Below are positions 1,288 to 15,164 of a DNA stretch of 15,164 bases, in pieces; positions within the stretch are counted from its first letter, which is position 1, and every line of letters begins with the position of its first letter. Where the stretch lies: positions 1 through 15,164 of IMG/VR virus record IMGVR_UViG_2703718819_000014. One strand, written 5' to 3'. The DNA is from a virus (Duplodnaviria; Heunggongvirae; Uroviricota; Caudoviricetes). Under the pieces are notes generated by a model, which saw only the letters and a list, made by a program, of their open reading frames with translations, was not told the origin of the DNA and searched no databases. The translations under genes and the position numbers were made by a program.

Positions 1288-1320
1288 TGAACCTCCCAGA
1301 CGTCCAGGAGCATTAACAGG

Positions 1321-1575
1321 TTAACCGGAACTTGCATTTTTGACACCTGGTTGTTTCTGGTTTTCGATCCATCGCATAATTTCTTCGATGTTGTACAGGC
1401 ATTCACTGTAATGCCCTGGATCACCTTCTACAGCGTAATGGCGGTATTCTTTTCCCTGCATCCATGACTTTCTTCTGGCCCGCTCGATGGTGCCAGGCTT
1501 TAGCCCTGTTGATGCAATGAGGACTCTCTCCGTACACCATTTGCTGGGGGTTATCTGATAGATGATTGTCTGCAT
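1321..1575 (-). CDS. xis: Excisionase-like small DNA-binding protein
   Basis: 84-aa ORF immediately upstream of and co-oriented with int (33-bp gap); GAGG RBS; basic, small, with a lambda-Xis-like KDGREY-type segment (QGKEYRHY). Assignment rests mainly on position and size. Confidence 0.6.
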   Translation of the reverse strand: MQTIIYQITPSKWCTERVLIASTGLKPGTIERARRKSWMQGKEYRHYAVEGDPGHYSECLYNIEEIMRWIENQKQPGVKNASSG

Positions 1576-1618
1576 GCCAACCTCATAAAACTTTCATCCA
1601 CGGCAGTGGCACCACACT

Positions 1619-1735
1619 TCAAACATTCGCTTCACATCTTCTGTACAACACGGTGTTGTTTATGCAGCGAACAATTTTTACCGGGTAACCGGCACTGTCG
1701 GTATACAGTTGTCCCTGATTAATCAGAGCGAACAT
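1619..1735 (-). CDS. Hypothetical small protein (38 aa)
   Basis: Internal ATG of track ORF 1619..1858; AGGAG 5 nt upstream of the ATG at 1735; lies just after the stop of the upstream ORF at 1767. No recognisable domain. Confidence 0.3.
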   Translation of the reverse strand: MFALINQGQLYTDSAGYPVKIVRCINNTVLYRRCEANV

Positions 1736-1766
1736 TTTTTCTCCTGCTCTCTGAATAGTGAGAACT

Positions 1767-2150
1767 TCAGAGCCGTATGTTTGTAGCGGGTTCAATGCTG
1801 ATAATTTCTGCTGAGATAAGCATCCCGGCAAGCCAGAGTTCCCCGGACAGGTCTTCATCCTGGCATATCAGTTCGCCAATATTAATGGTGGCCATGATAT
1901 CCGTTTTCCCTGTGCGCTCATCCAGGACTTCTTCATAAGGCAGCGTTGCGTACAGGCTTTCAATAGCGCAATTGATAACATCCAGTCCGGTCAGATTGCC
2001 GCCGACAGTAACTTCGAATGTTTCGCGGTATTCCCATAGTCCGAAAGTTAATCGAACGGTTTGTTTTGCCATGCGTCCGCACGACGTCAGATTCGGGTCA
2101 TAGTTCATTATTTGCGGTTGAGTATTCTGGTTGTTCATCTGATTTTCCAT
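1767..2150 (-). CDS. Hypothetical protein (127 aa), last large gene of the SPFH operon
   Basis: Track ORF 1767..2213; I prefer the ATG at 2150 (MENQMNNQ...) because the GTG at 2213 would overlap the SPFH gene by 35 nt. No recognisable motif. Confidence 0.5.
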   Translation of the reverse strand: MENQMNNQNTQPQIMNYDPNLTSCGRMAKQTVRLTFGLWEYRETFEVTVGGNLTGLDVINCAIESLYATLPYEEVLDERTGKTDIMATINIGELICQDEDLSGELWLAGMLISAEIISIEPATNIRL

Positions 2151-2178
2151 TAACCCGGCGGTTTGCCGGGCGTGTAAG

Positions 2179-3006
2179 TTATTTAATCTGGATAAATGGT
2201 GTATTGGCACCACTGGTCATGTATTGCGGCAGTGTACCGTTCCACTTGTTGATGGCTTCCAGCTCCATGACGCCAGGGTTCTGGCGCAGAGCTTCGCCGC
2301 GTAAACGAATGGCATCGGCTTCTGCCAGGGCTTTTGTTCGAATGGCATCAGCCTGTCCGGCAGCTTCTGCACGCAGCATGTTGGCCTCCGCTTCACGTTG
2401 CTTGACTTCCTGTTCGCGCTGCAGGGTTTTCTGGTTTGCCGTGACTTTGGCGTTAATGCTGTCGATAACGGTTGGCGGGTATTCCGGTTTACCTACATAA
2501 GAGAGGCTCATTACCTGAACGCCGATGGGGGTCATCTCTTCCTGAATGTCTTTAAGTGCGGCATCCAGTAGTTCAGACTTGCCGCCGTCGATAAATTTGT
2601 CGGTGGTCATTTTGCTGGCCAGTCGATTGAGTGCGTCGGCGATCTTCTGGCGCAGGTCAGTGGCGGTAATGTCATCCACGCCTTTGCGGTAGGTCTGAAA
2701 CACCGTGGTAACTTTGGATGGATCAACTTTGTAGGCAACACCGATGTGATAGCCGATGGTTGTGCCGTCACTCATCTGGAAGCTGAACGGCTCATCGTAG
2801 GTCTTCATTTGTTTGAAGGTTGGGAAGATGTAAACTTCAGTATTCCAGCCAGTCCAGTAGCGACCAACACCGACCACCTCACCGACGCCTTTATCGTCGC
2901 CCAGTTTATTTACTTTGATGCCAACATTACCGGGTTCAACGCGATCGCAGCCGACAAGGCCAATGGTCGGCAGAACAATGGCTAAAGCAAAAATAATTTT
3001 TTTCAT
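2179..3006 (-). CDS. SPFH/band-7 (HflK/C, flotillin-like) domain lipoprotein
   Basis: 275-aa ORF; N-terminal signal peptide with lipobox (MKKIIFALAIVLPTIGLVGC); central region of SPFH type; C-terminal Ala/Glu/Arg-rich coiled-coil (QREQEVKQREAEANMLRAEAAGQADAIRTKALAEADAIRLRGEA); AAGGA RBS 6 nt upstream; ATG overlaps the stop of the upstream ORF (ATGA). Confidence 0.8.
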   Translation of the reverse strand: MKKIIFALAIVLPTIGLVGCDRVEPGNVGIKVNKLGDDKGVGEVVGVGRYWTGWNTEVYIFPTFKQMKTYDEPFSFQMSDGTTIGYHIGVAYKVDPSKVTTVFQTYRKGVDDITATDLRQKIADALNRLASKMTTDKFIDGGKSELLDAALKDIQEEMTPIGVQVMSLSYVGKPEYPPTVIDSINAKVTANQKTLQREQEVKQREAEANMLRAEAAGQADAIRTKALAEADAIRLRGEALRQNPGVMELEAINKWNGTLPQYMTSGANTPFIQIK

Positions 3007-3191
3007 TTTTTATCCTTAGTGAAAGAAAGACCCTTGTAAATGGCATAAATGCAGGGCGGGGTCAGAAACGCCAGTGCAAAGCCAGAAGTAACTGCTATCG
3101 TATCCTTCATGGATATAAGGAACGGAACGAGTAATCCGTAAATGCATGCGATAATTGCCAGTAAAATTACTATTGTGAAATACAGTCTCAT
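3003..3191 (-). CDS. Small two-helix membrane protein (62 aa), SPFH partner
   Basis: Two hydrophobic segments (FTIVILLAIIACIYGLLVPFLI and AVTSGFALAFLTPPCIYAIY); stop overlaps the SPFH start codon, implying translational coupling. RBS is weak and the start is uncertain. Confidence 0.5.
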   Translation of the reverse strand: MRLYFTIVILLAIIACIYGLLVPFLISMKDTIAVTSGFALAFLTPPCIYAIYKGLSFTKDKK

Positions 3192-3335
3192 TGGTATGTG
3201 GTATCCCGATATTTTTAACTGACAGACAGCGCAATAAAGAGAATAATGATTTCTGTTATTGTCAGTACTGTGGCAAGGATTAAAAGCAGTTTTACTCTGC
3301 TTAATTCACGGTTGTTTTTCATATAAATGGTTAGT

Positions 3336-3360
3336 AAAAAACGGAAGAATTATATTCTTC
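3336..3360 (-). terminator. Intrinsic terminator ending the 3-ORF cargo cassette
   Basis: On the minus strand: GAAGAAT / 3-nt loop / ATTCTTC hairpin followed by CGTTTTTT, 16 nt after the stop of ORF 3376..3948. AT-rich stem, so moderate strength. Confidence 0.5.
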
Positions 3361-3375
3361 TTAATATTTAATGTG

Positions 3376-3948
3376 TCACTGGCCTTCTGGCATACCATGA
3401 GTATTCAGGTCGTTAATCATTTCATCCAGAAGGAGTTCAAGCCCTTCTCGCCCCATGTCTGAAACAATGAAACCTTTATCTGGGTATGTAATGAGCATTT
3501 TCTGATAAAGAAACAGCGCTCTACCCATTCCTTCTGCCTCGCCGTATTTTTGAATTAAATTCCATTCAATATACTGCTGTAAGGCAAACCGAATGGGGCC
3601 GGGATATATCGTCATAACCCCATGCTTCCCGTTATATATTACGGCGCGATCTGTTGTTCCGTGTTCATTCGGGACATCAATTGTGCCGTTCTTGTCTTCT
3701 TCTTCGTTGATGAATGTCGTCACATACAACCATCGCCACTGGGCAACCTTCATCTCAACCGGAAGTTTTCCCAGTAATCCTGCTTCGTCAGCTTGCGCGA
3801 GACACTGAAGGATACGTAAACCTCGCACATTAGGAGTATCGAATTCTCCAGCATCCAGACGGCGTATGGCGTCGTGATAATCAATAGTCATACTGCCTGT
3901 TTGTATACCATTGGCTGTTGCTTCAGCCTGGAATTCAGCGTATTGCAT
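3376..3948 (-). CDS. Hypothetical protein (190 aa)
   Basis: ORF with ATG at 3948, 5 nt after the stop of the upstream 60-aa ORF (RBS inside that ORF); followed by a terminator. No motif I can name. Confidence 0.6.
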   Translation of the reverse strand: MQYAEFQAEATANGIQTGSMTIDYHDAIRRLDAGEFDTPNVRGLRILQCLAQADEAGLLGKLPVEMKVAQWRWLYVTTFINEEEDKNGTIDVPNEHGTTDRAVIYNGKHGVMTIYPGPIRFALQQYIEWNLIQKYGEAEGMGRALFLYQKMLITYPDKGFIVSDMGREGLELLLDEMINDLNTHGMPEGQ

Positions 3949-3953
3949 GAAAT

Positions 3954-4136
3954 TTATTCCTCATCTTCATCTGCTGGTGCAATAACGTCATATCCTGCCT
4001 TTTCTGCAATAAACAGGAATGTTGAAAGATTTCCTACAAATTCATCGTCATGAACATGACGAATTAATATTACTTTCCCGTTTTTGATGGTCAGCAATAC
4101 TCTGGTTTGTTCGTGTTCTGCTGTTTTCTGATGCAT
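3954..4136 (-). CDS. Hypothetical small protein (60 aa) with acidic C-terminus
   Basis: ATG at 4136 with GGGAG 7 nt upstream; C-terminus ...APADEDEE; tightly coupled to the 190-aa ORF downstream. Confidence 0.5.
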   Translation of the reverse strand: MHQKTAEHEQTRVLLTIKNGKVILIRHVHDDEFVGNLSTFLFIAEKAGYDVIAPADEDEE

Positions 4137-4540
4137 TATTATCTCCCGTATGCTTTACGCAGAAACAAGCAGGCAATATGCATGTAATTTTCACCGTGTT
4201 GTGCAATAAGACAGGCTGTTTTGTGTGATGCCTTATGTTTTATAAAAGTCATAATAAAGCCTCCAGTGGATTAAGTGTGTGATAATCCCCGGCTATTAAG
4301 CCGTAATATATTATTCGCAGATGACTTGTTTTATTTAACTGGATAGTTCTGTTTCGGCTGCTGCTTCAGCATAGCAACGTGCAAATTCAAGAACTTCATC
4401 ACCTGTTCTTTTTATTGCATCGTTGTCTTACATTTGTAATACGACAACTGCGCATAATAAATCATGGATATTGTTTGCAAAGGAATCCGGTGCCAGGCAT
4501 AAGCCTTCATACTTATCATGGATATTGCCAGTCATTGTTG

Positions 4541-5233
4541 CTACTCCTTTGCTTCTGATTTTCCCGTTAACAACCACACCAGGTCACAATTAAGCGCACT
4601 GGCCAGTGGTACTATCTGATCAGCAGGAACTTCACAGATGCCGCATTCCCAGTCGTTTATGGGGTCACTATAGGTATGAATCATGCGGGCAAGATCAGAT
4701 TCGGTTAATCCCAGTTTTGTACGGGCGCTTTTGATGCGTGCGCCAATACTTTCCACATGGACTTCAGGCACATTTACGCGAATAACTGACTCGCTGTTTT
4801 TTTCACTCAGCAGAGAAAGCGGATCGCATCCCAGGACGTTTGCCAGGGGGATAAGCATGCTGATGGTTGGCTCGTACTCTCCACTCTCCCATTGCAGAAT
4901 AATCTCTTCGTCAAGATCGAGTAGTCTGGCTAGTTCGGTAGTCGTCAAGCCGCAGGCTTCACGTTTTGTGCGTATGCAGGCTATCTTGTTGCCTGAGCGA
5001 ATAGAATGTTGTTGTTTTGTCGATGCGATCGCTAAAGCATATTCATGAGTAAATTCCAGCACATCAAACCCAACCTCTTTTAATCGCGTATCATCCAGGA
5101 GGTTGAAGGTGCGAACAGCACTGAGCAGGTTTGCGATGGTTAATGCAAAAGAATCGAGGTCTAAATCATCACATAAAACCTTGTTGTAAGTATTGAGGCT
5201 ACATGTTTTTGGTGTTGTTTGTAAGGCTTCCAT
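4541..5233 (-). CDS. Tandem-HTH (two XRE-type helix-turn-helix domains) DNA-binding protein
   Basis: Two consecutive XRE-like HTH segments (...GLTTTELARLLDLDEEIILQWESGEYEPTISMLIPLANVLGCDP... and ...GLTESDLARMIHTYSDPINDWECGICEVPADQIVPLASALNCDLVWLL...) after an ~85-aa N-terminal region of unknown type. First in-frame codon at 5269 is TTG; the ATG at 5233 is preferred. Directly downstream of and co-oriented with the cI-like gene. Confidence 0.7.
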   Translation of the reverse strand: MEALQTTPKTCSLNTYNKVLCDDLDLDSFALTIANLLSAVRTFNLLDDTRLKEVGFDVLEFTHEYALAIASTKQQHSIRSGNKIACIRTKREACGLTTTELARLLDLDEEIILQWESGEYEPTISMLIPLANVLGCDPLSLLSEKNSESVIRVNVPEVHVESIGARIKSARTKLGLTESDLARMIHTYSDPINDWECGICEVPADQIVPLASALNCDLVWLLTGKSEAKE

Positions 5234-5315
5234 ATCATCACCATGCAATTCTAAGTTGAAGTTAATCAATATATAATTGATGGTGAGATATTATGTGTCA
5301 GGTAAACTAGTGTCA

Positions 5316-5340
5316 ATCAAAAATTGATAAACTTGATTTT
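5316..5340. promoter_or_regulatory. Operator-like palindrome plus an 11-mer shared with the cI/cro intergenic region
   Basis: Perfect 13-bp palindrome ATCAAAAATTGAT (5316-5328), immediately followed by AACTTGATTTT (5330-5340), which recurs exactly at 6108-6118. Lies between the cI stop and the tandem-HTH gene start. Confidence 0.35.
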
Positions 5341-5380
5341 TTTGTAGTGGGTGACAAATAATTTAATTTAAAATCAACAA

Positions 5381-6070
5381 CTAACCAAATCTGTTGATAT
5401 TGAATGGTACAGATGAGATGACTTTTGACTGGATATACAGCAGCGCCATTCCCTCTTTTTCGATGCTCCACGGCTGATAGTTGGGATTGTCTGATAAGAC
5501 CATGATCTTGCTTCCAATTTTTTGAAGTCGTTTGACGTAACATTCGCCATCAAAGCAAAATGCATAAATGCCATCACCGTCAAAATAAGTTACTGTTTTA
5601 TCTAAAAACAGTAAGTCACCTGGGGCGATTGTTGGGGCCATGCTGTCCCCTCTGGCGTTACCGATTTCTATGTTCTTGAATGCTCTGTTACCGACCAGGC
5701 GGCGGGCATATTCAGGATCAAGTTCTATTGAGCGTACTACATCAATTAGATCTCCCCGTACATGAGTTCCGTCGCCGCAGCTGAATTCAACATCCAGCAC
5801 ATTGAACACAACGCTGTCTTCTCTTGTATGGTGTTTTTCAGCTGAAGAGTGTGTCGATGAGGTATCTTCACCCAAAAACCAGGATTGTGGATAACCACTA
5901 ATTACTGATAGTTGTGCAAGTTTATCGCTTCTGGGAAACGTCTTTCCTGTAGTCCAGTATTGTACTGATTGTGCGCTTACACCCAGCTTACGGGCTAGTT
6001 CAGCCTGACTCCAGCCTTTTGTTTTCAGCATCATTGCTATCCGATTTTCTGTGCTTTTTACATTCTTCAT
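5381..6070 (-). CDS. CI-like prophage repressor (HTH + S24 LexA-type autopeptidase)
   Basis: N-terminal XRE HTH (GWSQAELARKLGVSAQSVQYWTTGKTFP); C-terminal S24 signature with Ser in GDSMAPTI and Lys in CYVKRLQK; divergent from a cro-like gene across a 130-bp repeat-rich region. Start chosen at M11 of the track ORF (MKNVK...). Confidence 0.85.
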   Translation of the reverse strand: MKNVKSTENRIAMMLKTKGWSQAELARKLGVSAQSVQYWTTGKTFPRSDKLAQLSVISGYPQSWFLGEDTSSTHSSAEKHHTREDSVVFNVLDVEFSCGDGTHVRGDLIDVVRSIELDPEYARRLVGNRAFKNIEIGNARGDSMAPTIAPGDLLFLDKTVTYFDGDGIYAFCFDGECYVKRLQKIGSKIMVLSDNPNYQPWSIEKEGMALLYIQSKVISSVPFNINRFG

Positions 6071-6100
6071 GGTGAGTTCCTGTCGAGGCTTTATACACAT

Positions 6101-6202
6101 AAATATTAACTTGATTTTAGTGTATTCGATCCTTTTGAAACTTGCATGTTAATTTATTCTTGATGTATTCTTGATTTGTAAAGTTAATGTTGGAGCTGTG
6201 CT
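6101..6202. promoter_or_regulatory. Divergent immunity promoter/operator region (PRM/PR-like)
   Basis: AT-rich intergenic region between divergent repressor genes. Contains tandem direct repeats TATTCTTGAT (6155-6164, 6166-6175), a degenerate copy GTATTCGAT (6122-6130), and AACTTGATTTT (6108-6118); all share a TTGAT core. Individual -35/-10 hexamers were not confidently assigned. Confidence 0.5.
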
Positions 6203-6460
6203 GTGATAAAACTGAATGATTACGACATGTTGCGTAAATTGATTCCTCAAAACGCCATAGCAAGATACATCGGTGTTACGCCACAAGCGGTGAACCTGTG
6301 GTTTTCTAAAAACTCCGTTCCTTCTCGTTTTGTTTTACGGGTGTGTGAGTTAGTTGAATGGAAGGTTACTCCGCATGGGTTAAGACCTGATCTATACCCT
6401 TATCCCGAAGATGGAATTCCTGATTCGTTACGAAAATCAAACGGTATTACCAGAGATTAA
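6203..6460 (+). CDS. Cro/YdaS-like small HTH regulator
   Basis: 85-aa ORF divergent from cI-like gene; GTG start with GGAG 6 nt upstream; HTH segment IARYIGVTPQAVNLWFSKNSVP resembles the Rac YdaS/Cro-type fold. Confidence 0.7.
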   Translation: MIKLNDYDMLRKLIPQNAIARYIGVTPQAVNLWFSKNSVPSRFVLRVCELVEWKVTPHGLRPDLYPYPEDGIPDSLRKSNGITRD

Positions 6461-6541
6461 AGACTGACTGTCACGAGTAGTAACTCACGATGCATACGTT
6501 TTGGCGTGAGTTCTGAAATGTCATCCTCAAGGAGCAATCAG

Positions 6542-7249
6542 ATGAATACCGCAATTTTTACCGATAAAGCATCCATGACCAGCGTTGAAATCGCAGAGCT
6601 GGTGGGCAGCCGCCATGACAAAGTGAAACAATCCATTGAGCGCCTTGCTGAACGAGGGATTATTCAGCTTCCCCCAATGGGGATTTCTGAAAATATCAAT
6701 GGGTTAGGTTTAACTCAAAAAAGTAAGCATTATCTTTTCGAAGGTGAACGAGGCAAGCGCGACAGCATCATTGTTGTCGCACAGCTTTGCCCTGAATTCA
6801 CCGCCCGCCTGGTAGATCGCTGGCGCGAACTGGAAGAACAAATCCGTAAACCAATGAGCCAGATCGAAATGGTTGCTGCAATGGCACTTGAAGCCGTTCG
6901 CCAACAAAGACGTCTTGAGCAGGTGGAAGAGAAAGTCAGCCACGTTACCGAAACAGTCGAGCAAATCAAAAGAGGCACCATACGTGATGGTTATGCAGGT
7001 TACCGTCAGCTGGTGGCGAAAACGGGTATGTCAGATGCGAAATGCCGCAATCTGGTGAACGCATATCAGATCCCTACCGATACCCATGAATTTATGACGC
7101 CGGATGGATTGTTGTCTCGTCGCGCGATTGTTGCAGTAGAACCCTTCATGTCTGCTTTTCATCGAATGATGAGTGAAGCAGAACCACGAGGTGCACGCTG
7201 GTATCACCCGAAAATGGGGCTGTTCCAGGCGCTGGGCTGGCAGGTGTAA
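6542..7249 (+). CDS. Rha-family phage regulatory protein (antirepressor-like), paralog 1
   Basis: AAGGAG 6 nt upstream of ATG at 6542; N-terminal region (MTSVEIAELVGSRHDKVKQSIERLAERGII ... YLFEGERGKRDSIIVVAQL) matches the Rha/ORF6N-type pattern. Confidence 0.7.
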   Translation: MNTAIFTDKASMTSVEIAELVGSRHDKVKQSIERLAERGIIQLPPMGISENINGLGLTQKSKHYLFEGERGKRDSIIVVAQLCPEFTARLVDRWRELEEQIRKPMSQIEMVAAMALEAVRQQRRLEQVEEKVSHVTETVEQIKRGTIRDGYAGYRQLVAKTGMSDAKCRNLVNAYQIPTDTHEFMTPDGLLSRRAIVAVEPFMSAFHRMMSEAEPRGARWYHPKMGLFQALGWQV

Positions 7250-7268
7250 TTATGCTCACAGGTAGCAC

Positions 7269-7448
7269 ATGCAAGTACTCAATCGCTGGTTCCGTGATGG
7301 AAGGGGGCGTCGCGTCCACGTTATACGCTGGGAGCCTGAAACACAGCGCGTTATCTATCTTCGCAAAGACTACCCGCATGAGTGCTTTAGTCCTTTGTGG
7401 AAATTCAGGCGTGATTTTGTTGAGTGTGAAGGAACACCAGCATATTGA
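7269..7448 (+). CDS. Small basic hypothetical protein (59 aa), not in the ORF track
   Basis: ATG at 7269 in a different frame from track ORF 7252..8277; translation MQVLNRWFRDGRGRRVHVIRWEPETQRVIYLRKDYPHECFSPLWKFRRDFVECEGTPAY looks protein-like (balanced composition, Trp/Cys spacing); just below the 60-aa threshold. Confidence 0.4.
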   Translation: MQVLNRWFRDGRGRRVHVIRWEPETQRVIYLRKDYPHECFSPLWKFRRDFVECEGTPAY

Positions 7449-7725
7449 TTCTGCAATTCCGGGACGTTACACTGTTCCGGCACCTTATAAAGCGGGTGCC
7501 GGGCGTGGAAACCCGAAATTCAATATAGAGCACAACCGCGCTCATGCGGTTTTTTCGTGTCATGAGCATCGTTACGCCCAAATTATGGTGGGGCGTGCAG
7601 GGCCAACTTCGGTTGGGCCGGGTTCTATGTTGACCGGTATTTCCACCCCTGTACGTCTCACCACCTATATGGTCGTGGAAAGCCTTGGTGGTGAGTTCAT
7701 TGAATTCAACATAGGGGCTGTCACC

Positions 7726-8277
7726 ATGACTACTCTCCCAACCCAATCTCACCCTGAAATCACGATTATCAATGGTCGCGTTGTCACCACATCTCTTGCA
7801 GTAGCTAATTACTTTACTAAACGGCATGAGCGGGTTTTAGATAGAATTAGAAACCTCGAATGTTCCGCTGAATTTACTGAACACAATTTTGTGTTAAGTG
7901 AATACACCGACGCATCAGGCCGCAAACTCCCTTGTTACCAAATCACCCGCGACGGTTTTGCATTTCTTGCTATGGGTTTCACGGGTAAACGTGCTGCCCG
8001 GTTCAAAGAAGCATACATCAATGCCTTTAACCAGATGGAGAGGTGCTTATCAGGAGTTGGTGCGGCTGATATGCCATCTGTCGCACAAAACGCCAGAGGC
8101 GTATACCTGCATTTGCGAGAAATCCACCAAATCTGGACAAGCCAGCTTTATCCCATGCTTAAGGCTGTTGAATCTCCGCTGGCTAGCAAACTGTACGACC
8201 GTGTAGGTGATGCTGTTTTTGGTGCTGCACTTGTTGATTCCAGACTGAACGGTTCTGACAAGGAGGCGCACCCATGA
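7726..8277 (+). CDS. Rha-family phage regulatory protein, paralog 2
   Basis: Internal ATG of track ORF 7252..8277; from MTTLPTQSHPEITIINGRVVTTSLAVANYFTKRHERVLDRIRNL ... YQITRDGFAFLAMGFTGKRAARFKEAYINAFNQME follows the Rha-domain pattern. The upstream 474 nt of the long ORF lacks coding signals. Confidence 0.7.
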   Translation: MTTLPTQSHPEITIINGRVVTTSLAVANYFTKRHERVLDRIRNLECSAEFTEHNFVLSEYTDASGRKLPCYQITRDGFAFLAMGFTGKRAARFKEAYINAFNQMERCLSGVGAADMPSVAQNARGVYLHLREIHQIWTSQLYPMLKAVESPLASKLYDRVGDAVFGAALVDSRLNGSDKEAHP

Positions 8278-8507
8278 TTCGCCGCGTCGTTAGTTCCCTG
8301 TATCACCGATACAACCACTGCCCCCGTGTGGGGCAGTGGTTCACCACCAGCAACGGTCACGTTCTGCGGGTTTGCCTGGTCAATACAGAAAGCCAGAAGG
8401 TTGTCTGCCAGGTTCAGGGATGTACTCATACCCTGAGTTATCCGCTGGTGGCGTTTCAGTCCGGAAAAATGTTTAAACGCCTGGGAGGTGGCTATGCGTC
8501 CGTCTGA
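8274..8507 (+). CDS. Small Cys-containing hypothetical protein (77 aa)
   Basis: AAGGAGG 7 nt upstream; ATG overlaps the stop of Rha paralog 2 (ATGA); four Cys at positions 16, 34, 45, 50; 3' end overlaps the replication-initiator start. Confidence 0.5.
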   Translation: MIRRVVSSLYHRYNHCPRVGQWFTTSNGHVLRVCLVNTESQKVVCQVQGCTHTLSYPLVAFQSGKMFKRLGGGYASV

Positions 8508-9387
8508 TCTTCTGCTCGATTTTGGACATCCGGTTGCTTATTACCCTGGGCTCGTTAAATACATGGGAAGTCCGCACGCTGTTATTTTCTTTGGTCAGAT
8601 TTTTTACTGGCAGGATAAAGCACATGCAGCGGAAGGCGTACATAAAACGCGTGAAGAGATACAACACGAAACAGGACTTACATTTGAACAACAGGCTGTA
8701 GCGCGTAAGCATCTTGTGTCCAGAGGCATTTTGGTTGAAACCAACAAGCGTCTTGAGCACAAAATGTTCTACCGTATAGATTGTGAGCGCCTTAATGAAA
8801 TTATCAATGAAAACAATCAGTTTTCCCGAAATGGGGAAACCCGTTTTCGGGAAACTGTAAAACCCAATTTCGCGGAGGAGGGAAAGCCTTCACCGCGGGC
8901 ACGGGAAACCCCTCGCCGCGGAGAAGGGAAAACCAATTTCGATCTTACAGAGAATACAACAGAGATTACTTCAGAGAATACTACAGAGAGTAAAAACACT
9001 ATTGGCGCATCCGCTGACGCGTCTGCACCAGCACGTTCTGCCCGACAGGAATATTCACCGGAATTTGAACAGGCCTGGCAGGAATATCCCAAACGTGCTG
9101 GTGGTAATTCCAAGTCAGCTGCTTTCAAAGCCTGGAAAGCCCGTATCAGGGAAGGTGTGACACCCGAAATCATGCTCAACGGTGTGAAACGCTATGCCGC
9201 CTGGGTGCGTGTCTCAGGAAATATCGGTACCCAGTTCGTGAAGCAGGCGTCGACGTTCTTTGGCCCCGATCGGCACTTTGACGAATTCTGGCAACAGCCA
9301 GCAGCCCCCGGAGGTGGGCGGGGCAAAAGCCTCCCAATCTCGGGATTCAGTGAACAGGATTACGGCTCAACGAACTTCAACTGGTGA
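8494..9387 (+). CDS. Replication initiator / replisome-organiser protein (lambda O / Rac YdaU-like)
   Basis: GGGAGG 5 nt upstream of ATG 8494; coding sequence contains iteron-like repeats; basic C-terminal segment EFEQAWQEYPKRAGGNSKSAAFKAWKARIREGV; immediately upstream of the DnaC-like and DnaB-like genes. Confidence 0.65.
   Translation: MRPSDLLLDFGHPVAYYPGLVKYMGSPHAVIFFGQIFYWQDKAHAAEGVHKTREEIQHETGLTFEQQAVARKHLVSRGILVETNKRLEHKMFYRIDCERLNEIINENNQFSRNGETRFRETVKPNFAEEGKPSPRARETPRRGEGKTNFDLTENTTEITSENTTESKNTIGASADASAPARSARQEYSPEFEQAWQEYPKRAGGNSKSAAFKAWKARIREGVTPEIMLNGVKRYAAWVRVSGNIGTQFVKQASTFFGPDRHFDEFWQQPAAPGGGRGKSLPISGFSEQDYGSTNFNW
8833..8992. repeat. ori-like iteron array inside the initiator gene
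   Basis: Five copies of GGGAAA(A)CC-type repeats at about 8833, 8848, 8880, 8903 and 8926, followed by four tandem ~12-bp ACAGAGA(A/T)TAC units (8947-8992). Matches the lambdoid layout of iterons plus an adjacent repetitive tract inside the O gene. Confidence 0.5.
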
Positions 9388-9406
9388 TTTTGTGGGGAGG
9401 GTGAAA

Positions 9407-10297
9407 ATGACTAATTTCCTGAACAAACAACACATGCAACACGACAAAGCGCAGTTACTTAACCGCAAGGCAGACTTGGAAGAGGAGCTGGCATTTGTCC
9501 GTGGCGGAAAGCGTCCGTGGCGCTGTGAGCATTGGGTGCAAAGCACTGAGACGGTGTCCTGCGGGAAACACGGAAAATACACGCGCTATGTGCTGACGGG
9601 CCCGGATGTAAGGGGGAAAGCTGTCAAACGGGTGTCCGGTTGCCTGTCCTGCCTCAGTGAGGAGCTGGACCGCGTGTATGACGAATTACGCGCCCTGAAG
9701 GTTCGTGAATTACTCGATCAGGCCGGTATTGCCCGCCGGTTCCAGGACTGTGAGTTTGAGAATTATCAGGCGGTGAATACTGACGCACAGAAAAACCTTG
9801 AAGCCTGTCAGCGCTATGCCGCTTCCTGGAAGAAATGTCTCGCTGCAGGCACCAGCATGGTCATGATTGGCAATTGTGGTACCGGGAAAAATCACCTGGC
9901 TGTATCAATGGCAAAAAATATTATTCGCCACCACCAGGCAACCATAGAAATCACGGATGTGATGCGGCTTACCCGTGCGGTGAAAAATACCTGGCGCCAC
10001 AACTCTGAGCGCACTGACGATGAAGTGATTAATCATTTTGCATCGCTGGATCTGCTTATCATCGATGAGGTTGGTGTGCAGTTCGGTACGCCTGCGGAGA
10101 TAACCATCCTGCAGGAAATCATAAATGCACGTTACGAAAGCGTTTTACCGACAATTTTGATCAGCAACCTGACGTTTGAACAGCTTAAGGAATCCATTGG
10201 TGAACGGATTGTGGATCGCGTTACTGATGGTGGGCGTAACTGCCTGGTGTTTGGTTGGGAAAGCTACCGTGCGCATATCAGAGGTGTGGCAGCATGA
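9407..10297 (+). CDS. DnaC/IstB-like AAA+ helicase loader with N-terminal Cys cluster
   Basis: GGAGG 6 nt upstream of ATG 9407; Walker A GNCGTGKNHLA, Walker B LLIIDEVG; N-terminal CEHW...SCGKHG...GCLSC zinc-finger-like cluster. Confidence 0.85.
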   Translation: MTNFLNKQHMQHDKAQLLNRKADLEEELAFVRGGKRPWRCEHWVQSTETVSCGKHGKYTRYVLTGPDVRGKAVKRVSGCLSCLSEELDRVYDELRALKVRELLDQAGIARRFQDCEFENYQAVNTDAQKNLEACQRYAASWKKCLAAGTSMVMIGNCGTGKNHLAVSMAKNIIRHHQATIEITDVMRLTRAVKNTWRHNSERTDDEVINHFASLDLLIIDEVGVQFGTPAEITILQEIINARYESVLPTILISNLTFEQLKESIGERIVDRVTDGGRNCLVFGWESYRAHIRGVAA

Positions 10298-11694
10298 CAA
10301 ACCCGACAAATCCGGCGTGGCGTAATGATGACCTGGAAGGAGCTGTCATTGGCGCGTTTTTTCTGCGAGGGGCTGATCCGGAAGTGATGGATATTCTGGC
10401 CACACTTCCGGCGGATGTCTTTTTCGTGCGTCAGTACAGGGATATTTACGCGGGAATTTGCAGACAGGCCCGTGTATCCGGCGTCATTGACCCCGTACTG
10501 CTGTGCAATGAGATGCCGGAACTTGCCCCGGTGATTACCGACACCGGACGCAAAACCTGGGTGAAGTCTTCACTGGAGCACTATGTTGCAGCGCTGCGGC
10601 GCAATGCCGCACTGCGCGATGCAGAAAAAACACTGACCGAAGCATTACAGAATTTACGTGATGCGCATACCTGTGAAGCAGCTGAGGATGCCCTGAAGGA
10701 TGCGCAGAACATGATGACCTCACTGTCGACCGGAAAGGGCGTCATTCAGCCGGTTCACATTGATGATGTTCTTCCGGAAGTGGTCGACCGTGTTGAATGC
10801 CGCAATCAGGGACTGGAGAAATCCAGGGCACTGATGACCGGTATTGATGAACTGGACGCAAAAACGGGCGGTATGGAGCCAGGCGACCTGGTATTCATTG
10901 CGGCCCGTCCTTCGATGGGGAAAACCGAACTTGCGCTGGATATCATCGACAAGGTGACTGAGCAGGGGCATGGCGTGCTTCTGTTCACCATGGAGATGGC
11001 GAACATCCAGATTGGTGAACGTATGGTGTCTGCTGCCGGTGGAATGCCGGTATCCCGTCTTAAGTCTGTTGCCCGTTTTGAAGATGAAGACTGGGCGCGT
11101 TTCTCGCAGGGCGTGGGACGAATGACGGGGCGTAATATCTGGATGGTGGACCAGGCAAACCTGACCATTGATGAGATATGTGCAACCACGAGGCACCACC
11201 GGATGAAACACCCGGAAACGGCGCTGGTGGTGGTCGATTACCTCGGCCTGATTAAAACCCGCAGCACGGGGCGTCACGACCTTGCTGTGGGGGAAATCTC
11301 AAAGGGACTTAAAAGCCTGGCAAAATCCGGCGGTTTTCCGCTGATTGCTCTGAGCCAGCTCTCCCGTGGCGTGGAATCCAGACCCAATAAACGCCCCATG
11401 AACTCGGACCTGAAAAACTCAGGGGAAATAGAGGCGGATGCAGACATCATTCTGATGCTTTACAGGGATGAGGTGTACAACCCGGAGACACAGGCGAGAG
11501 GCATAGCTGAAATCAACATCACGAAACAGCGTAATGGCACGCTGGGTACCATTTACCGGCGTTTTCATAACGGGCATTTTCTGCCTGTGGATCAGGAGAG
11601 TGCCCGGGTTCTTTCCACTCCCATGACGCCGGGCAATCCGCGCAGATACAGCAATAACCGCATGTCGGGTAGTAAAACGGAGCGTTTATTTTGA
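10294..11694 (+). CDS. DnaB-like replicative DNA helicase
   Basis: 466 aa; ATG overlaps the DnaC-like stop (ATGA); RecA-fold C-terminal domain with Walker A ARPSMGKTELAL and Walker B-like ALVVVDYLGL. Confidence 0.85.
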   Translation: MTNPTNPAWRNDDLEGAVIGAFFLRGADPEVMDILATLPADVFFVRQYRDIYAGICRQARVSGVIDPVLLCNEMPELAPVITDTGRKTWVKSSLEHYVAALRRNAALRDAEKTLTEALQNLRDAHTCEAAEDALKDAQNMMTSLSTGKGVIQPVHIDDVLPEVVDRVECRNQGLEKSRALMTGIDELDAKTGGMEPGDLVFIAARPSMGKTELALDIIDKVTEQGHGVLLFTMEMANIQIGERMVSAAGGMPVSRLKSVARFEDEDWARFSQGVGRMTGRNIWMVDQANLTIDEICATTRHHRMKHPETALVVVDYLGLIKTRSTGRHDLAVGEISKGLKSLAKSGGFPLIALSQLSRGVESRPNKRPMNSDLKNSGEIEADADIILMLYRDEVYNPETQARGIAEINITKQRNGTLGTIYRRFHNGHFLPVDQESARVLSTPMTPGNPRRYSNNRMSGSKTERLF

Positions 11695-11948
11695 ACAACA
11701 GAACAACCACTGTTTCACCGGAACAACTTCGTCGGCAGGCGCAGGAGATGCTTCGTTGTGCTGAACAGATGGAAAAAACGAGCGTGGCAAAAGATACGCT
11801 CCGCAAGCAGCTTACTCCGGCGCTTCGTGATCTGCTGCAGGCAAAACACCGCACACAAAAGGCGGTGGATGAGCTGGTGGATTGCGTGGCGGAACTGGAA
11901 GGCCAGGTAAGCCAGTTTGAAACGCTGGTGAAAGAGTTTACTGCGTGA
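11691..11948 (+). CDS. Hypothetical small coiled-coil protein (85 aa)
   Basis: ORF overlapping the helicase stop; first codon TTG; helical heptad-like composition. Start and reality uncertain. Confidence 0.4.
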   Translation: MNNRTTTVSPEQLRRQAQEMLRCAEQMEKTSVAKDTLRKQLTPALRDLLQAKHRTQKAVDELVDCVAELEGQVSQFETLVKEFTA

Positions 11949-11999
11949 TGGCTGAATTTTTTCTCCTGCGTTCATGCAATACCGTTCGCTGAGGTGACC

Positions 12000-12989
12000 G
12001 TGAGAGCACTGCTGACCCCTGAAATTGCCCCGCGTATGGGGATCGTCTTGTTCAGACCCGGTTCAGAGCTGATGCCCCTGTTTATGCAGGGGCGTGTCCT
12101 GCTGGAGCCTGAGCCGGAACGTTATTCATCTTTTGCCAGTGGTGCCGTTCCGGCAGCATCACAACCGCTGGCGGATGATCCTGCCGTTCGGGCCGTGTTC
12201 CGCCATGAGGCGGTGATCCGTCGTGCTGGTGGCGTGGAATGCCTTGAGAGCTGGTTACTTCGTGAAAAAGGCTGCCAGTGGCCTCATTCCGGATGGCACA
12301 GCGAGAACATGACCACAATGCGACACGCGCCGGGCGCAATCCGTCTGTGCTGGCACTGCGATAACCTGCTTCGCGATCAGTTCACGGAACGTCTGGAGTC
12401 AATGGCAACGGATAACTGTGCCCGCTGGGTGTTGTCCGTAGTCCGTCGTGATCTCGGTTTTGATGACAGTCACGTTGTGACAATGCCTGAACTGTGCTGG
12501 TGGCTGGTTCGTAATGACCTGGCGGATGCCTTACCGGAAAGTGCAGCCCGTAAGGCCCTGAGATTACCGAAGCCTGTTTTGCCGTCTGTCACCCGGGAGA
12601 GTGACCTTGTGCCTTCGGTTCCTGCCACCAGCATTATCCAGGATAAAGCGAAAAAGGTGCTGGCGCTGAAAGTGGATCCGGAGTCGCCGGAGTCTTTTAT
12701 GTTACGCCCCAAACGTCGTCGCTGGGTTAATGAAAAGTACACGCGCTGGGTTAAGACGCAGCCGTGTGCATGTTGTGGTAAGCCAGCCGACGATCCGCAT
12801 CACCTGATTGGTCATGGTCAGGGTGGAATGGGTACAAAAGCGCATGACCTTTTTGTGTTGCCTTTGTGCAGAAAACACCATGACGAACTGCATGCGGATA
12901 CCGTGGCATTTGAAGAGAAGTATGGTTCCCAACTGGAGCTGATATTTCGTTTTATCGATCGCGCGCTGGCGATTGGTGTGCTGTCCTGA
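12000..12989 (+). CDS. DUF968-like (Qin YdfU-type) protein with C-terminal Cys/His motif
   Basis: C-terminal CACCGKPADDPHHLIGHGQGGMGTKAHDLFVLPLCRKHHDELH resembles the DUF968 / HNH-like metal-binding pattern found beside Q in Qin-type prophages. Start uncertain: GTG at 11994 or 12000 (GAGG 5 nt upstream), or ATG at 12036. Confidence 0.6.
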   Translation: MRALLTPEIAPRMGIVLFRPGSELMPLFMQGRVLLEPEPERYSSFASGAVPAASQPLADDPAVRAVFRHEAVIRRAGGVECLESWLLREKGCQWPHSGWHSENMTTMRHAPGAIRLCWHCDNLLRDQFTERLESMATDNCARWVLSVVRRDLGFDDSHVVTMPELCWWLVRNDLADALPESAARKALRLPKPVLPSVTRESDLVPSVPATSIIQDKAKKVLALKVDPESPESFMLRPKRRRWVNEKYTRWVKTQPCACCGKPADDPHHLIGHGQGGMGTKAHDLFVLPLCRKHHDELHADTVAFEEKYGSQLELIFRFIDRALAIGVLS

Positions 12990-13006
12990 TTTTGTGGAGA
13001 AAGTTG

Positions 13007-13399
13007 ATGCGTGATATTCAGATGGTTCTCGAACGCTGGGGGGCATGGGCGGCAAGTGGTAACGCCGGGGTGGACTATTCTCCGATAGCTGCTGGATTTA
13101 AAGGCCTTTTACCATCCACCGCTAAACCTCGCCCGGCCTGCAGCGATGATGACGGCCTTATCATCGAAAACTGCCTTACGCGCCTGAAGAAGAAAAAACC
13201 GGACGAGTATTCGCTGCTGGTAGCTCATTATCTGCTGCGCATATCAAAAAGGCAGATTGCCAGAACAAGAAAGAAGAGCGAAAAGGCAATACGAATTGAG
13301 ATGCAGATTGCTGAAGGATTTATTGACGGATGTCTGTCGATGCTGGGTGTAAGGCTGGAGATGGACGACTGGCTGCCCAAAAAAGTAAAAAATGATTAG
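13007..13399 (+). CDS. Late-gene antiterminator, Q family (phage-82/P22 gp23 type)
   Basis: 130 aa; N-terminus MRDIQMVLERWGAWAA and ...AAGFKGL...C.DDD...RLKKK.PDEY.LL..YY match the Phage_antitermQ-type pattern; GGAG RBS. Coordinates taken from the ORF track. Confidence 0.75.
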   Translation: MRDIQMVLERWGAWAASGNAGVDYSPIAAGFKGLLPSTAKPRPACSDDDGLIIENCLTRLKKKKPDEYSLLVAHYLLRISKRQIARTRKKSEKAIRIEMQIAEGFIDGCLSMLGVRLEMDDWLPKKVKND

Positions 13400-13459
13400 C
13401 GCGGTCCGCAAAAAGTATGTCAGTATGTTAAGAGTGGTTACTACGCCACACAACTTAAA

Positions 13460-13481
13460 CCCGCCGCCTGGCGGGTTTTTT
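13460..13481 (+). terminator. Intrinsic terminator about 60 nt downstream of Q
   Basis: CCCGCC / GCCT / GGCGGG hairpin followed by TTTTTT; preceded by a CA-rich unstructured tract CGCCACACAACTTAAA. Confidence 0.7.
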
Positions 13482-13600
13482 ATGACTGAAATCGCATCAG
13501 TACAGTAAACGTGCTGGTGGTGAATACCTGTCTTTCAGCTTGCTGGCTTTTTAGACAAGAGTTATTGGTATGTCACGTTAACCGGAAAAGGGAAAAAGAC

Positions 13601-13798
13601 ATGCTAAAACAGCAGGATATGACAGAAACCGCCAGAGTGGTGTTTAATGAATTAAGCGTCACCTACCCGGCGACAGTCGGGGAGATTGCGCAGAATACTT
13701 ACCTTTCACGCGAACGCTGCCAGTTAATACTGACCCAGCTGGTTATGGCGGGTCTGGCAGACTATCAGTTCGGTTGTTACAGACGCCTTCCGCAGTGA
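13601..13798 (+). CDS. Small putative winged-helix DNA-binding protein (65 aa)
   Basis: Internal ATG of track ORF 13511..13798 with AGGGA upstream; size and pattern (VGEIAQNTYLSRERCQLILTQLVMAGL) resemble small PapI/FaeA-type regulators; followed directly by a terminator. Weak assignment. Confidence 0.45.
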   Translation: MLKQQDMTETARVVFNELSVTYPATVGEIAQNTYLSRERCQLILTQLVMAGLADYQFGCYRRLPQ

Positions 13799-13812
13799 AG
13801 GCTTTTTTATTT
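13785..13812 (+). terminator. Intrinsic terminator
   Basis: GCCTTC / CGCAGT / GAAGGC hairpin overlapping the stop of the small ORF, followed by TTTTTTATTT. Confidence 0.65.
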
Positions 13813-13922
13813 GTGGTAAATGGGCGGCTGGTGGGTGTGGTGGTTGTTGCTTTCCCGTTGCTGAAAAAGAAAGCATCAGGCGATTAGCAGGGTATCAGTT
13901 ACCCGTTGAAATTTTTAAATAC

Positions 13923-14152
13923 CTCACAATTCAGGCGGTTGACTGTTGTCTGGTTTGCGGGGAGTTTGTTAAAAGAAACTGGCATGGTGAATCCCCCTGT
14001 GCGGAGGGGCAATCAGCAACTGGTGTTTTGTCACCGACCCTTATCCTTTCTGTGCGGGTTCAGGTGCTGATACTGAACTCACCGGGAGGCACCCGGCACC
14101 ATGCAATGGCACATAGCGCCACTCTCCAGCCCCTCTCCGGAGGGGCTTTTCT
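13923..14152 (+). ncRNA. Candidate structured sRNA module, copy 1 (includes its terminator 14129-14152)
   Basis: Conserved blocks shared with copy 2 at identical spacing: CTCACAATTCAG, TTGACn (+16), TTTGTTAAAA (+42), GCATGGTGAATCCCCCTGnGCGGAGGGGC (+59), CTGAACTCACCGGGAGGCACCCGGCACCATG, then hairpin GCCCCTC/TCCG/GAGGGGC + TTTT. The 5' GCATGGTG can pair with 3' CACCATGC, closing a 123-nt domain. Confidence 0.4.
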
Positions 14153-14341
14153 GTGCCGGATACATCACAGTTTCTGGAACCTTGGGTACTACAGTATCAG
14201 TCAGGGTGCTATATTTTCAGATGTGATGAAAGCCTGTCAGCAGGCAGGGCGTATCGGAAATGACCCAGTAGAGAAAACGTTGACTCAGATACCGGTGCTG
14301 AGTTACCGGGAAACCGGCATCACATGACCGCTATCCTTCCA

Positions 14342-14368
14342 GGCCCATCCGCTCCGGTGGGCCTTTTT
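14342..14368 (+). terminator. Intrinsic terminator
   Basis: GGCCCA / 10-nt loop / TGGGCC hairpin followed by TTTTTA. Confidence 0.55.
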
Positions 14369-14405
14369 ACTGCAGAAAACAGGTTCCCCGTTAAATGCTA
14401 TGTTG

Positions 14406-14640
14406 CTCACAATTCAGTAAGTTGACAGTTGCCTGTCAGACTGGGCATTTGTTAAAAAAATTTCGCATGGTGAATCCCCCTGAGCGGAGGGGCGACTGGT
14501 GACGGTATAATCTCTGATTATCAAAACGAGAATGACGCGGGTTTAGTGGCACCGGGCTGAACTCACCGGGAGGCACCCGGCACCATGTGCATGATGATAC
14601 AGATACACGGCTTTAGCCCCTCTCCGGAGGGGCTTTCTTG
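14406..14640 (+). ncRNA. Candidate structured sRNA module, copy 2 (includes its terminator 14616-14640)
   Basis: Same block order and spacing as copy 1 (blocks at +16, +42, +59); closing helix GCATGGTG ... CACCATGT spans 124 nt (the one change gives a G-U pair); intervening sequence differs from copy 1; terminator hairpin GCCCCTC/TCCG/GAGGGGC followed by a weak U-tract (TTTCTT). Confidence 0.4.
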
Positions 14641-14645
14641 TGGGC

Positions 14646-14672
14646 AAAAAAAAAGCCCGAGTGGGTTCGGGC
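14646..14672 (-). terminator. Intrinsic terminator on the minus strand, back-to-back with the copy-2 terminator
   Basis: On the minus strand: GCCCGA / ACCCAC / TCGGGC hairpin followed by nine T (plus-strand A9 at 14646-14654). Confidence 0.6.
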
Positions 14673-14694
14673 AACAGCATGAGATATACATTTT

Positions 14695-14700
14695 TATAAT
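14695..14700 (+). promoter_or_regulatory. Candidate -10 element (TATAAT) of a late (PR'-like) promoter
   Basis: Perfect TATAAT with AT-rich upstream sequence and no clear -35; about 30 nt upstream of a strong terminator and 155 nt upstream of the esterase start. Confidence 0.35.
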
Positions 14701-14727
14701 CGAATGGATTTTAACCAGAATTCATAA

Positions 14728-14752
14728 GGCTGCGCAACTGCGCGGCCTTTTT
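14728..14752 (+). terminator. Intrinsic terminator (tR'-like)
   Basis: GGCTGCGC / AACT / GCGCGGCC (8 bp with one G-U pair) followed by TTTTT; about 100 nt upstream of the esterase start codon. Confidence 0.65.
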
Positions 14753-14855
14753 CGTATTGCGGGCTGTAGTCTTCCTCCTGCCATTGTCCTGTAACTTCCG
14801 GACTTCAGCCCGTTCCCTCATCTGACTCACAACATTATCCCGACCGGGAGGATTC

Positions 14856-15164
14856 ATGACATTTAAACACTACGATGTGGTCAGGGCGGCGTCGCCGTCA
14901 GACCTTGCGGAGCGACTGACTCAAAAACTGAAGGAGGGGTGGCAGCCATTTGGCAGTCCGGTGGCCATCACGCCCTATACCCTGATGCAGGCCATTGCGG
15001 CGGAAGGTGATGTCACCACACCTGTGGTGGTGAAGCCGTCGGATGGAGAAGGCACAGTTATCAGCACCACCAGCGAACCGGAGTATTACTTTGTTGTTGT
15101 TCTGGCGGGGCAGTCAAACTCAATGTCTTTTGGTGAAGGGCTGCCGCTGCCGGAGACATATGAC
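14856..15164 (+). CDS. NanS-p-like sialate O-acetylesterase (5' partial; gene runs off the window)
   Basis: GGGAGG 5 nt upstream of ATG 14856; open to the window end; N-terminus MTFKHYDVVRAASPSDLAERLTQKLKEGWQPFGSPVAITPYTLMQ matches, from memory, the DUF1737-type N-domain of prophage NanS-p proteins; followed by VVVLAGQSNSMSFGEG, a GQSN esterase-type motif. Not in the ORF track because no stop codon is in the window. Confidence 0.7.
   Translation, partial: MTFKHYDVVRAASPSDLAERLTQKLKEGWQPFGSPVAITPYTLMQAIAAEGDVTTPVVVKPSDGEGTVISTTSEPEYYFVVVLAGQSNSMSFGEGLPLPETYD

Follow-up and report, generated by a model that had tools for sequence, protein, structure and literature searches.

The stretch of DNA analyzed here (positions 1 to 15,164 of IMG/VR record IMGVR_UViG_2703718819_000014; 15,164 nt, referred to as the window) is part of an Escherichia coli lambdoid prophage. 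This report concerns the 82-nt interval at 13400–13481, which starts directly after the stop codon of an antiterminator Q gene and for which a preliminary description had offered three explanations: a C/A-rich small RNA (sRNA) acting as a sponge of the sRNA GcvB, an RNA derived from the late promoter PR', or simply the terminator of the Q gene. The Q gene (13004–13399, + strand, 130–131 aa) ends in TAG at 13397–13399 and was assigned to Phage_antitermQ (PF06530; Pfam E = 2.8e-52). Positions 13000–13900 were 100% identical to STEC2018-607, CP55_Sichuan, and JNEC-KY203. In an identical genome, the PGAP annotation near the interval listed a DUF968 protein, an "antiterminator Q family protein" at 13004–13399, and a 65-aa hypothetical protein at 13601–13798, with a SASA-family carbohydrate esterase gene next, just past the window end. 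The 65-aa open reading frame (ORF; + strand, PHROG 331) is the first one after the interval and has its own terminator at 13785–13802. The window Q matched the phage 21 Q (Q21) chains of PDB entries 6p18 and 6jnx with E = 1.4e-7, aligned over only about 80 residues; judged by its sequence, it is a distant relative of the phage 21 Q, for which the structures 6P18 and 6P1A are available.

The interval carries an ordered set of elements on the + strand, for which the conservation values given here were calculated by column over 102 distinct cassettes from the relatives described below. An A-tract (AAAAA, 13388–13392) within the last Q codons is conserved at −41 to −37 relative to TAAGAG, with A at 0.80–0.93 per column. 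It is followed by the near-invariant box GCGGTCCGCA (13401–13410), an imperfect palindrome in which every base is conserved at 0.93 or more. In the variable 18-nt spacer that comes next, a search for inverted and direct repeats found a tandem 8-bp direct repeat (AGTATGTC/AGTATGTT, 13414–13429), which is confined to this Q subgroup. The predicted −10 hexamer is CAGTAT (13421–13426), and the family consensus is TAnnnT (T at −8, 0.81; A at −7, 0.95; T at −3, 0.96), with the three middle positions free to vary. A conserved T-A-n-n-n-T with a variable middle is typical of a sigma-70 −10 element. In this subgroup, an alternative −10, TATGTT (13424–13429), overlaps the hexamer. The strongly conserved block TGT-TAAGAGTGGTTAC (13426–13441) has its flanking positions −3, −2, +9, and +12 conserved at 0.94 or more, and TAAGAGTGGTTAC itself (13429–13441) is the most conserved block of the cassette. 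In the C/A-rich tract CGCCACACAACTTAAA (13444–13459), the putative initial transcribed region, only G+16, CAC at +18 to +20, A+23, T+26, and A+28 are conserved. The interval closes on an intrinsic terminator (13457–13481), the equivalent of tR', with a perfect 9-bp stem (AAACCCGCC/GGCGGGTTT), the loop GCCT, a T6 run, and a folding energy of −15.1 kcal/mol. The hairpin at 13457–13478 was found by RNA folding and by the inverted-repeat search and was missed by a simple terminator scan; the T6 run occupies 13476–13481.

Relatives were collected from IMG/VR in two ways: a Q-first sample of 80 loci was picked by Q homology, and a motif-first sample of 80 loci was obtained by scanning the DNA alone for GCGGTCCGCA-N18-TAAGAGTGG. 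The exact string TAAGAGTGG was present 3' of Q, on the same strand and within the sequence available, in 53 of the 80 Q-first loci, and in nearly all distinct versions it was preceded by GCGGTCCGCA and the 18-nt spacer. A same-strand PF06530 Q gene was found upstream of the motif in all 68 motif-first loci that could be assessed, the other 12 having less than 1.8 kb of upstream sequence. The gap from the Q stop to GCGGTCCGCA ranged from −28 to +1764 nt in these 68 loci. It is 1 nt in the window type and negative for Q genes of 138–142 aa, where the cassette overlaps the 3' end of Q; in 45 of the 68 loci, the cassette lies 0.7–1.8 kb downstream of Q. The order of elements was the A-tract, GCGGTCCGCA, the 18-nt variable spacer ending in TAnnnTGT, TAAGAGTGGTYAC, about 12 nt of the form G.CAC..A..T.A, and an intrinsic terminator that begins 0–25 nt beyond this segment. 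A hairpin with a T-run was present within 110 nt of TAAGAG in 74 of the 102 distinct cassettes versus 8 of 300 stretches taken at random from the same loci (2.7%), and the terminators used several unrelated stem sequences.

The variable parts of the cassette were compared in the same loci. Where two loci encode Q proteins with 95% identity or more, their spacers differ at 10–12 of the 18 positions. The tandem repeat AGTATGTC/AGTATGTT was considered as a Q-binding element (QBE) of the phage 21 style and was rejected, since a spacer that varies so much among near-identical Q proteins is unlikely to host the recognition element. The C/A-rich tract varies as well: the commonest version among the relatives is CACACAGC, and others are GCCACACAGC, GACACGAAC, GTGACGTAGC, and GACTCCTTC. 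In one relative (L027:1922–1960; IMG/VR UViG_2617270975_000010), a deletion (TAAGAGTGGTTACTTCGCCCGCGAGCGGGTTTTTTT) has removed the tract together with a portion of the hairpin and leaves TAAGAG about 20 nt from the terminator.

The window-type 88-nt sequence was found in 211 of 5,426 complete E. coli genomes, and among the matches listed, no RefSeq annotation covered the intergenic element. No Rfam family was assigned to the interval at gathering thresholds in a search of the whole window, nor above threshold in a search of 13350–13950 with E up to 10. The sub-threshold matches to STnc370 (29.8 of 54 bits, minus strand) and isrK (16.5 of 50 bits) were driven by the terminator and were rejected as noise.

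Holins of four PHROG families and endolysins are encoded directly 3' of the cassette in the relatives. The Stx2a phage Stx2_EH2201 has the same Q and cassette, followed by the small ORF, a methylase gene, three tRNA genes, and stx2AB. Stx2a_1447 preserves the sequence from about 13426 on, even though the genes just 5' of it are on the other strand. Phage SfV encodes a different, longer Q (250 aa), and its DNA becomes homologous to the window precisely at the terminator hairpin, the SfV copy of which carries a terminator annotation. Just 5' of the SfV hairpin stands a lambda-like PR' (TTGCAT-17 nt-TAAGAT), then AACGATGGG, which we take to be the lambda pause element. Because the SfV homology starts at the hairpin, behind a lambda-like PR', the window hairpin is read as a shared tR'. 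The 65-aa ORF also follows the terminator in SfV (orf47), Stx2a_1447, and Stx2_EH2201. As separate observations on this ORF, it travels with the terminator across phages with unrelated Q genes (SfV orf47, phiP27, Stx2 phages), and some phage records name its product a "TrmB family regulator".

A further copy was found in the cryptic prophage DLP12 of E. coli K-12, between nmpC and essD (L085:5166–5277; NC_000913.3, about 577,165–577,276, with TAAGAG at 577,225). It retains the −10, TAAGAGTGGTTAC, CACACAGCTTAAA, and the terminator upstream of essD, in the arrangement TAnnnTGT-TAAGAGTGGTTAC-...-CACACAGCTTAAA with a CCCGCC-type terminator, and is near-identical to the window from the −10 onward. 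Transcription of this copy, on the + strand, is predicted to start at about 577,229 and to end at about 577,276. The DLP12 copy differs from the window in that nmpC and IS5 separate the cassette from quuD. In PMC7918800, the DLP12 lysis operon is cited as being under the control of a Q-type antiterminator.

These data suggest that 13400–13481 is probably the PR'-qut-tR' late-gene regulatory cassette of a QuuD/Q21-family antiterminator. The cassette is conserved, is strictly associated with a PF06530 Q gene, lies directly 5' of lysis genes or stx2, and contains a conserved promoter-proximal terminator. It is situated between Q and the lysis genes on the same strand, abutting Q in the window and with the same placement in all 68 assessable relatives, and the intrinsic terminator stands after the predicted promoter and before the late genes. 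Late-promoter anatomy, genomic position, and the association with Q, all drawn from the comparison of relatives, thus favor the second of the three explanations in the preliminary description, the PR'-derived RNA.

According to this assignment, a sigma-70 promoter would adjoin the Q stop, composed of the TAnnnT −10 (CAGTAT, 13421–13426) and the upstream A-tract, with no recognizable −35. Initiation would occur at about 13433–13437, with A13433 as the predicted start. In the absence of Q, the polymerase would halt about 45 nt on, at the hairpin and U-run of 13457–13481, and an end point at 13479–13481 would give a terminated RNA of 43–49 nt, expected in lysogens. When Q is present, it would load on the polymerase at GCGGTCCGCA, TAAGAGTGGTTAC, or both, a −10-like element near CAACTT would provide the pause, and the Q-modified polymerase would pass the cassette terminator and later ones into the late genes. 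The C/A-rich tract, on this reading, is the initial transcribed region of the late promoter and not a GcvB decoy.

Conservation in the alignments points to the promoter, the QBE, and the sigma-dependent pause element (SDPE) as candidates, and we infer the exact start site, which block would bind Q and which would act as the pause, and the action of Q at the cassette. The A-tract falls at the position of a proximal UP element for a start at 13433–13437, about 30 nt 5' of TAnnnT, and could be a UP-element-like promoter component. The box GCGGTCCGCA (13401–13410) sits where the QBE sits in lambda and phage 21 and is a candidate Q-binding element or −35 substitute. The TGT-TAAGAGTGGTTAC block may help to load Q or may act as an extended −10-like element. 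CAACTT (13451–13456) is a candidate −10-like sigma-dependent pause element; its consensus, nA(A/G)CTT, lies at +22 to +27 from the T of TAAGAG (A+23, 0.84; T+26, 0.96), a geometry relative to the start site that is unlike that of lambda or phage 21. The Q-binding and pause assignments, made by analogy, are provisional. Initiation near 13440 from an extended −10 promoter (TGnTAAGAG) is an alternative, but this promoter lacks the essential last T.

The element is grouped here with the lambda, 82, and 21 late regulatory regions, and as a kind of element it is textbook; what may be new are the particular conserved boxes that go with this Q subfamily and the shortness of the predicted product. The likeness to phage 21 is in the Q protein, which is of the same Pfam family and recognizably related, and in the predicted layout, with a promoter within a few bases of the Q stop, a terminator completed about 50 nt past the start, and late genes on the same strand. 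In the annotated phage 21 layout, the −35 begins 7 bp past the Q stop, with the QBE (two 8-bp direct repeats) and the −10 next; transcription starts 42 bp past the Q stop, the first base of the SDPE is +2, and the terminator, as annotated, is finished by +50. In contrast, the cassette does not resemble ATTGAGCA/AATGAGCA or the phage 21 TTGACA −35 at the DNA level. Its conserved boxes are GCGGTCCGCA and TAAGAGTGGTYAC, and the 8-bp tandem repeat of the window is in the non-conserved spacer. The window Q is also shorter than that of phage 21 (130 aa versus 162 aa, with about 80 residues aligned).

Several points weigh against the late-regulatory assignment. The window −10 has C for T at its first position, no −35 match is present, and a consensus promoter scan of the + strand found nothing here; this consensus promoter and terminator scan was not informative, as it also missed the hairpin of 13457–13481. 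No published start site or 3' end was found for the element, and literature searches on the nmpC–essD intergenic region of DLP12 yielded no usable report of a mapped start, a pause, or an sRNA. The DLP12 copy has no GCGGTCCGCA box and carries GGTTTACGTACGTA in its place, which could be a decayed Q-loading site of a cryptic prophage. The geometry of the cassette does not map one-to-one onto that of phage 21 or lambda. Finally, positions 0 to +8, those of TAAGAGTGG, are invariant in the column table partly by construction, since the loci were gathered with that string.

If the assignment as a late regulatory cassette is right, the late-gene switch of a widespread Q type has been located, and GCGGTCCGCA and TAAGAGTGGTYAC would be concrete candidate Q-loading sites for a Q21 relative whose DNA site is clearly unlike that of phage 21. 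For stx2 phages with this Q type, the threshold of toxin and lysis gene expression would be set by the cassette.

The best surviving of the other explanations is compatible with the late-cassette assignment and holds that the short PR'-tR' RNA also acts in trans through Hfq, as StxS does, on targets other than GcvB. The lambda 6S RNA, like StxS, is a short RNA from constitutive PR' transcription stopped at tR'. StxS is an Hfq-binding sRNA derived from a 258-nt PR'-tR' transcript that is processed by RNase E to 74 nt, in phages with a 144-aa Q (PMC7547250). The RNA of the window would arise in the same way and from the corresponding stretch, which separates Q from the late genes or stx, and in one Stx2a phage examined, Stx2_EH2201, the cassette is in this position upstream of stx2AB. 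Its predicted primary product is only 43–49 nt, and the Q type differs (130 aa). As predicted, the RNA would be unstructured in its 5' part and end in a strong terminator hairpin with a U6 tail, and some of its transcribed positions are conserved. However, DNA-level needs of pausing or Q loading would explain the conserved transcribed positions equally well, and nearly identical Q types are accompanied by very different bases at the variable positions. The Hfq-bound orphan sites checked in strain Sakai gave no match, in a screen confined to sites at least 100 nt from genes and for a strain in which presence of the cassette is not established. Overall, a trans-acting role of this kind appears unlikely, at roughly one chance in eight.

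Short Hfq-bound RNAs of Sakai were considered as possible cassette products. EcOnc10 (Sp12), EcOnc11 (Sp10), and EcOnc12 (Sp9) are Hfq-bound peaks of about 48 nt with near-identical, very high signal (NC_002695; Table S2 of PMC4104026). These peaks and EcOnc33 were rejected as cassette RNAs because EcOnc11 and EcOnc33 are not at a late promoter: EcOnc11 maps to the strand opposite the Sp10 lysis cluster, just 3' of the endopeptidase gene that ends this cluster, and EcOnc33 lies at the 3' end of the Sp6 sialate-deacetylase gene, also on the opposite strand. EcOnc11 appears to be an abundant, uncharacterized, repeated prophage sRNA unrelated to the cassette.

Another explanation, in which the hairpin does no more than end the Q transcript of the PR operon, after 60 nt of functionless 3' untranslated region (UTR) with no promoter, has slightly poorer prospects, and we give it about one chance in ten. 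The hairpin is the first terminator past the Q stop and would halt unmodified polymerase arriving from upstream, and the empty promoter scan and the imperfect −10 agree with the absence of a promoter. As an account of the interval, a plain Q terminator is incomplete: in 45 of 68 loci, the same promoter-like block and terminator are found 0.7–1.8 kb from Q. Where the two are separated, Q has a hairpin and T-run of its own right after its stop codon in the loci inspected (e.g., L040, L044, L049, and L052); therefore, the block does not depend on being the 3' UTR of Q. In DLP12, the block comes after nmpC and directly 5' of essD. The strong conservation of non-coding positions 5' of the hairpin would also be unexpected for a passive 3' UTR. 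The compactness of the phage 21 late region, the SfV homology from the hairpin on, and the conservation in Stx2a_1447 likewise speak against a plain 3' UTR.

A more specific proposal is that the 43–49-nt RNA is an abundant, Hfq-associated, trans-acting RNA of lysogens whose conserved 5' segment (..G.CAC..A(A/G)CUUAAA) binds or sponges GU-rich seeds such as GcvB R1. We regard this as a long shot, less probable than either of the two preceding explanations; if true, it would constitute a second class of PR'-derived regulatory RNA beside StxS, in a very common E. coli prophage module.

The claim that the interval encodes or yields an anti-sRNA sponge, with the C/A-rich tract titrating, in the manner of AgvB, the GU-rich seed R1 of GcvB, was examined by composition, folding, pairing, and family membership. 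The Q stop, the tract at 13444–13459, and the terminator hairpin from which the preliminary description had argued are all real, and a tract immediately 5' of a terminator with a U6 tail is a typical sRNA 3' end. The composition of the tract, in contrast, is no rarer than expected by chance: 2.1% of all 16-mers in the window equal its C/A richness, and CACAAC occurs 12 times on both strands of the window versus 7.4 expected. The tract had also been called single-stranded-looking, which holds for some start sites only. In the predicted fold of an RNA that begins at 13437, downstream of 13436, the entire tract is unpaired; in RNAs that include 13434–13438, GCCAC (13445–13449) pairs with GUGGU, AAA (13457–13459) adds to the terminator stem, and only ACAACUU (13450–13456) is left unpaired, so that half of the tract is predicted to be paired for a start at 13433. 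The putative nascent hairpin GUGGU-N6-GCCAC has one pair broken in about 23% of cassettes (A at +17), where compensation is impossible.

Pairing was measured with GcvB of K-12, using as a positive control AgvB1 of Sakai, located by Rfam RF02702 at 96.5 bits. Duplexes of the full-length candidate RNA with whole GcvB gave large energies that are meaningless because intramolecular structure is ignored, and they were replaced by duplexes between the 5' region and R1. The 27 nt 5' of the terminator (13433–13459) were compared against R1, with window 27-mers and shuffled sequences as backgrounds. The best duplex reached −13.6 kcal/mol and was matched or beaten by 26% of the window 27-mers and 37% of the shuffles, whereas the 5' region of AgvB was an outlier at −20.9 kcal/mol, reached by 1.5% of the 27-mers. 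The duplex core is a 7-bp pairing of ACACAAC (13448–13454) with GUUGUGU, which is present twice in GcvB R1.

Members of the anti-sRNA family share a conserved 3' domain of about 42 nt (Tree 2014, PMC4104026) and form convergent sRNA pairs that lie 3' of both PR' and the moron site and are antisense to the late operon (PMC4104026). The family is further marked by a discrete, abundant, Hfq-bound primary transcript of 51–60 nt. The interval resembles AgvB and AsxR in that it would give a short RNA of prophage origin with an unstructured 5' end followed by a terminator, and the CACAAC of the tract recalls the CACAACA of AgvB. Unlike these genes, it lies at a different locus and on the opposite strand, that of the late operon, directly after Q and 5' of the first late ORF. 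No match to the covariance models of AgvB (RF02702) or AsxR (RF02703) was obtained at 13350–13950 with E up to 10, although the AgvB model does find AgvB1 of Sakai. Pairing with GcvB was at chance level, and CACAAC is not conserved in the relatives, most of which carry CACACAGC. Since none of the three defining features that were tested, namely the 3' domain, the location, and a seed mimic pairing clearly above background, was found, the interval falls outside the AgvB/AsxR family. If the PR' assignment is right, lysogens would contain a short, probably constitutive RNA bearing the tract, comparable to StxS (PMC7547250); even so, the GcvB-sponge explanation, which by the sequence evidence comes down to a 7-nt match that is neither unusual nor conserved, is very improbable and the weakest of those considered. 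A C/A-rich tract before a terminator is thus insufficient to call a GcvB sponge, and a tempting mis-assignment is corrected here.

A genuine member of this anti-sRNA family is present elsewhere in the window, at 14650–14702 on the minus strand, where an AsxR/AgvB-family gene matched Rfam RF02703 with 63.0 bits, equal to the gathering score. Its position corresponds to the published arrangement of a convergent sRNA pair 3' of PR' (PMC4104026). Its 5' "variable" region (CGAUUAUAAAAAUGUAUAUC...) departs from the AsxR consensus at several positions; because of this difference, FnrS may not be its target.

The gene converges on the second of two tandem copies of a 206-nt STnc100 element (13953–14158 and 14436–14645, + strand; 141 and 165 bits), each of which ends in a terminator, and the arrangement matches the "convergent sRNA pair" of enterohemorrhagic E. 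coli (EHEC) prophages. Between the STnc100 copies and the late promoter is the moron site, which has no stx genes here. PGAP placed a minus-strand pseudogene ("hypothetical protein, internal stop"; L001:3973–4113, about 13972–14112 of the window) wholly inside the first STnc100 copy, and it is probably an annotation artefact. Just past the terminator of the small ORF, a G/T-rich run (GGCGGCTGGTGGGTGTGGTGGTTGTTGC, 13815–13850, + strand) is complementary over about 6 nt to 13446–13451 in the C/A-rich tract, probably by coincidence. In the early region, IsrK (7480–7556, + strand, Rfam 61.6 bits) and an adjacent C4 antisense RNA (7581–7668, + strand, Rfam 82.4 bits) suggest an RNA-based immunity or antirepressor module of the P1/P7 or Gifsy type.

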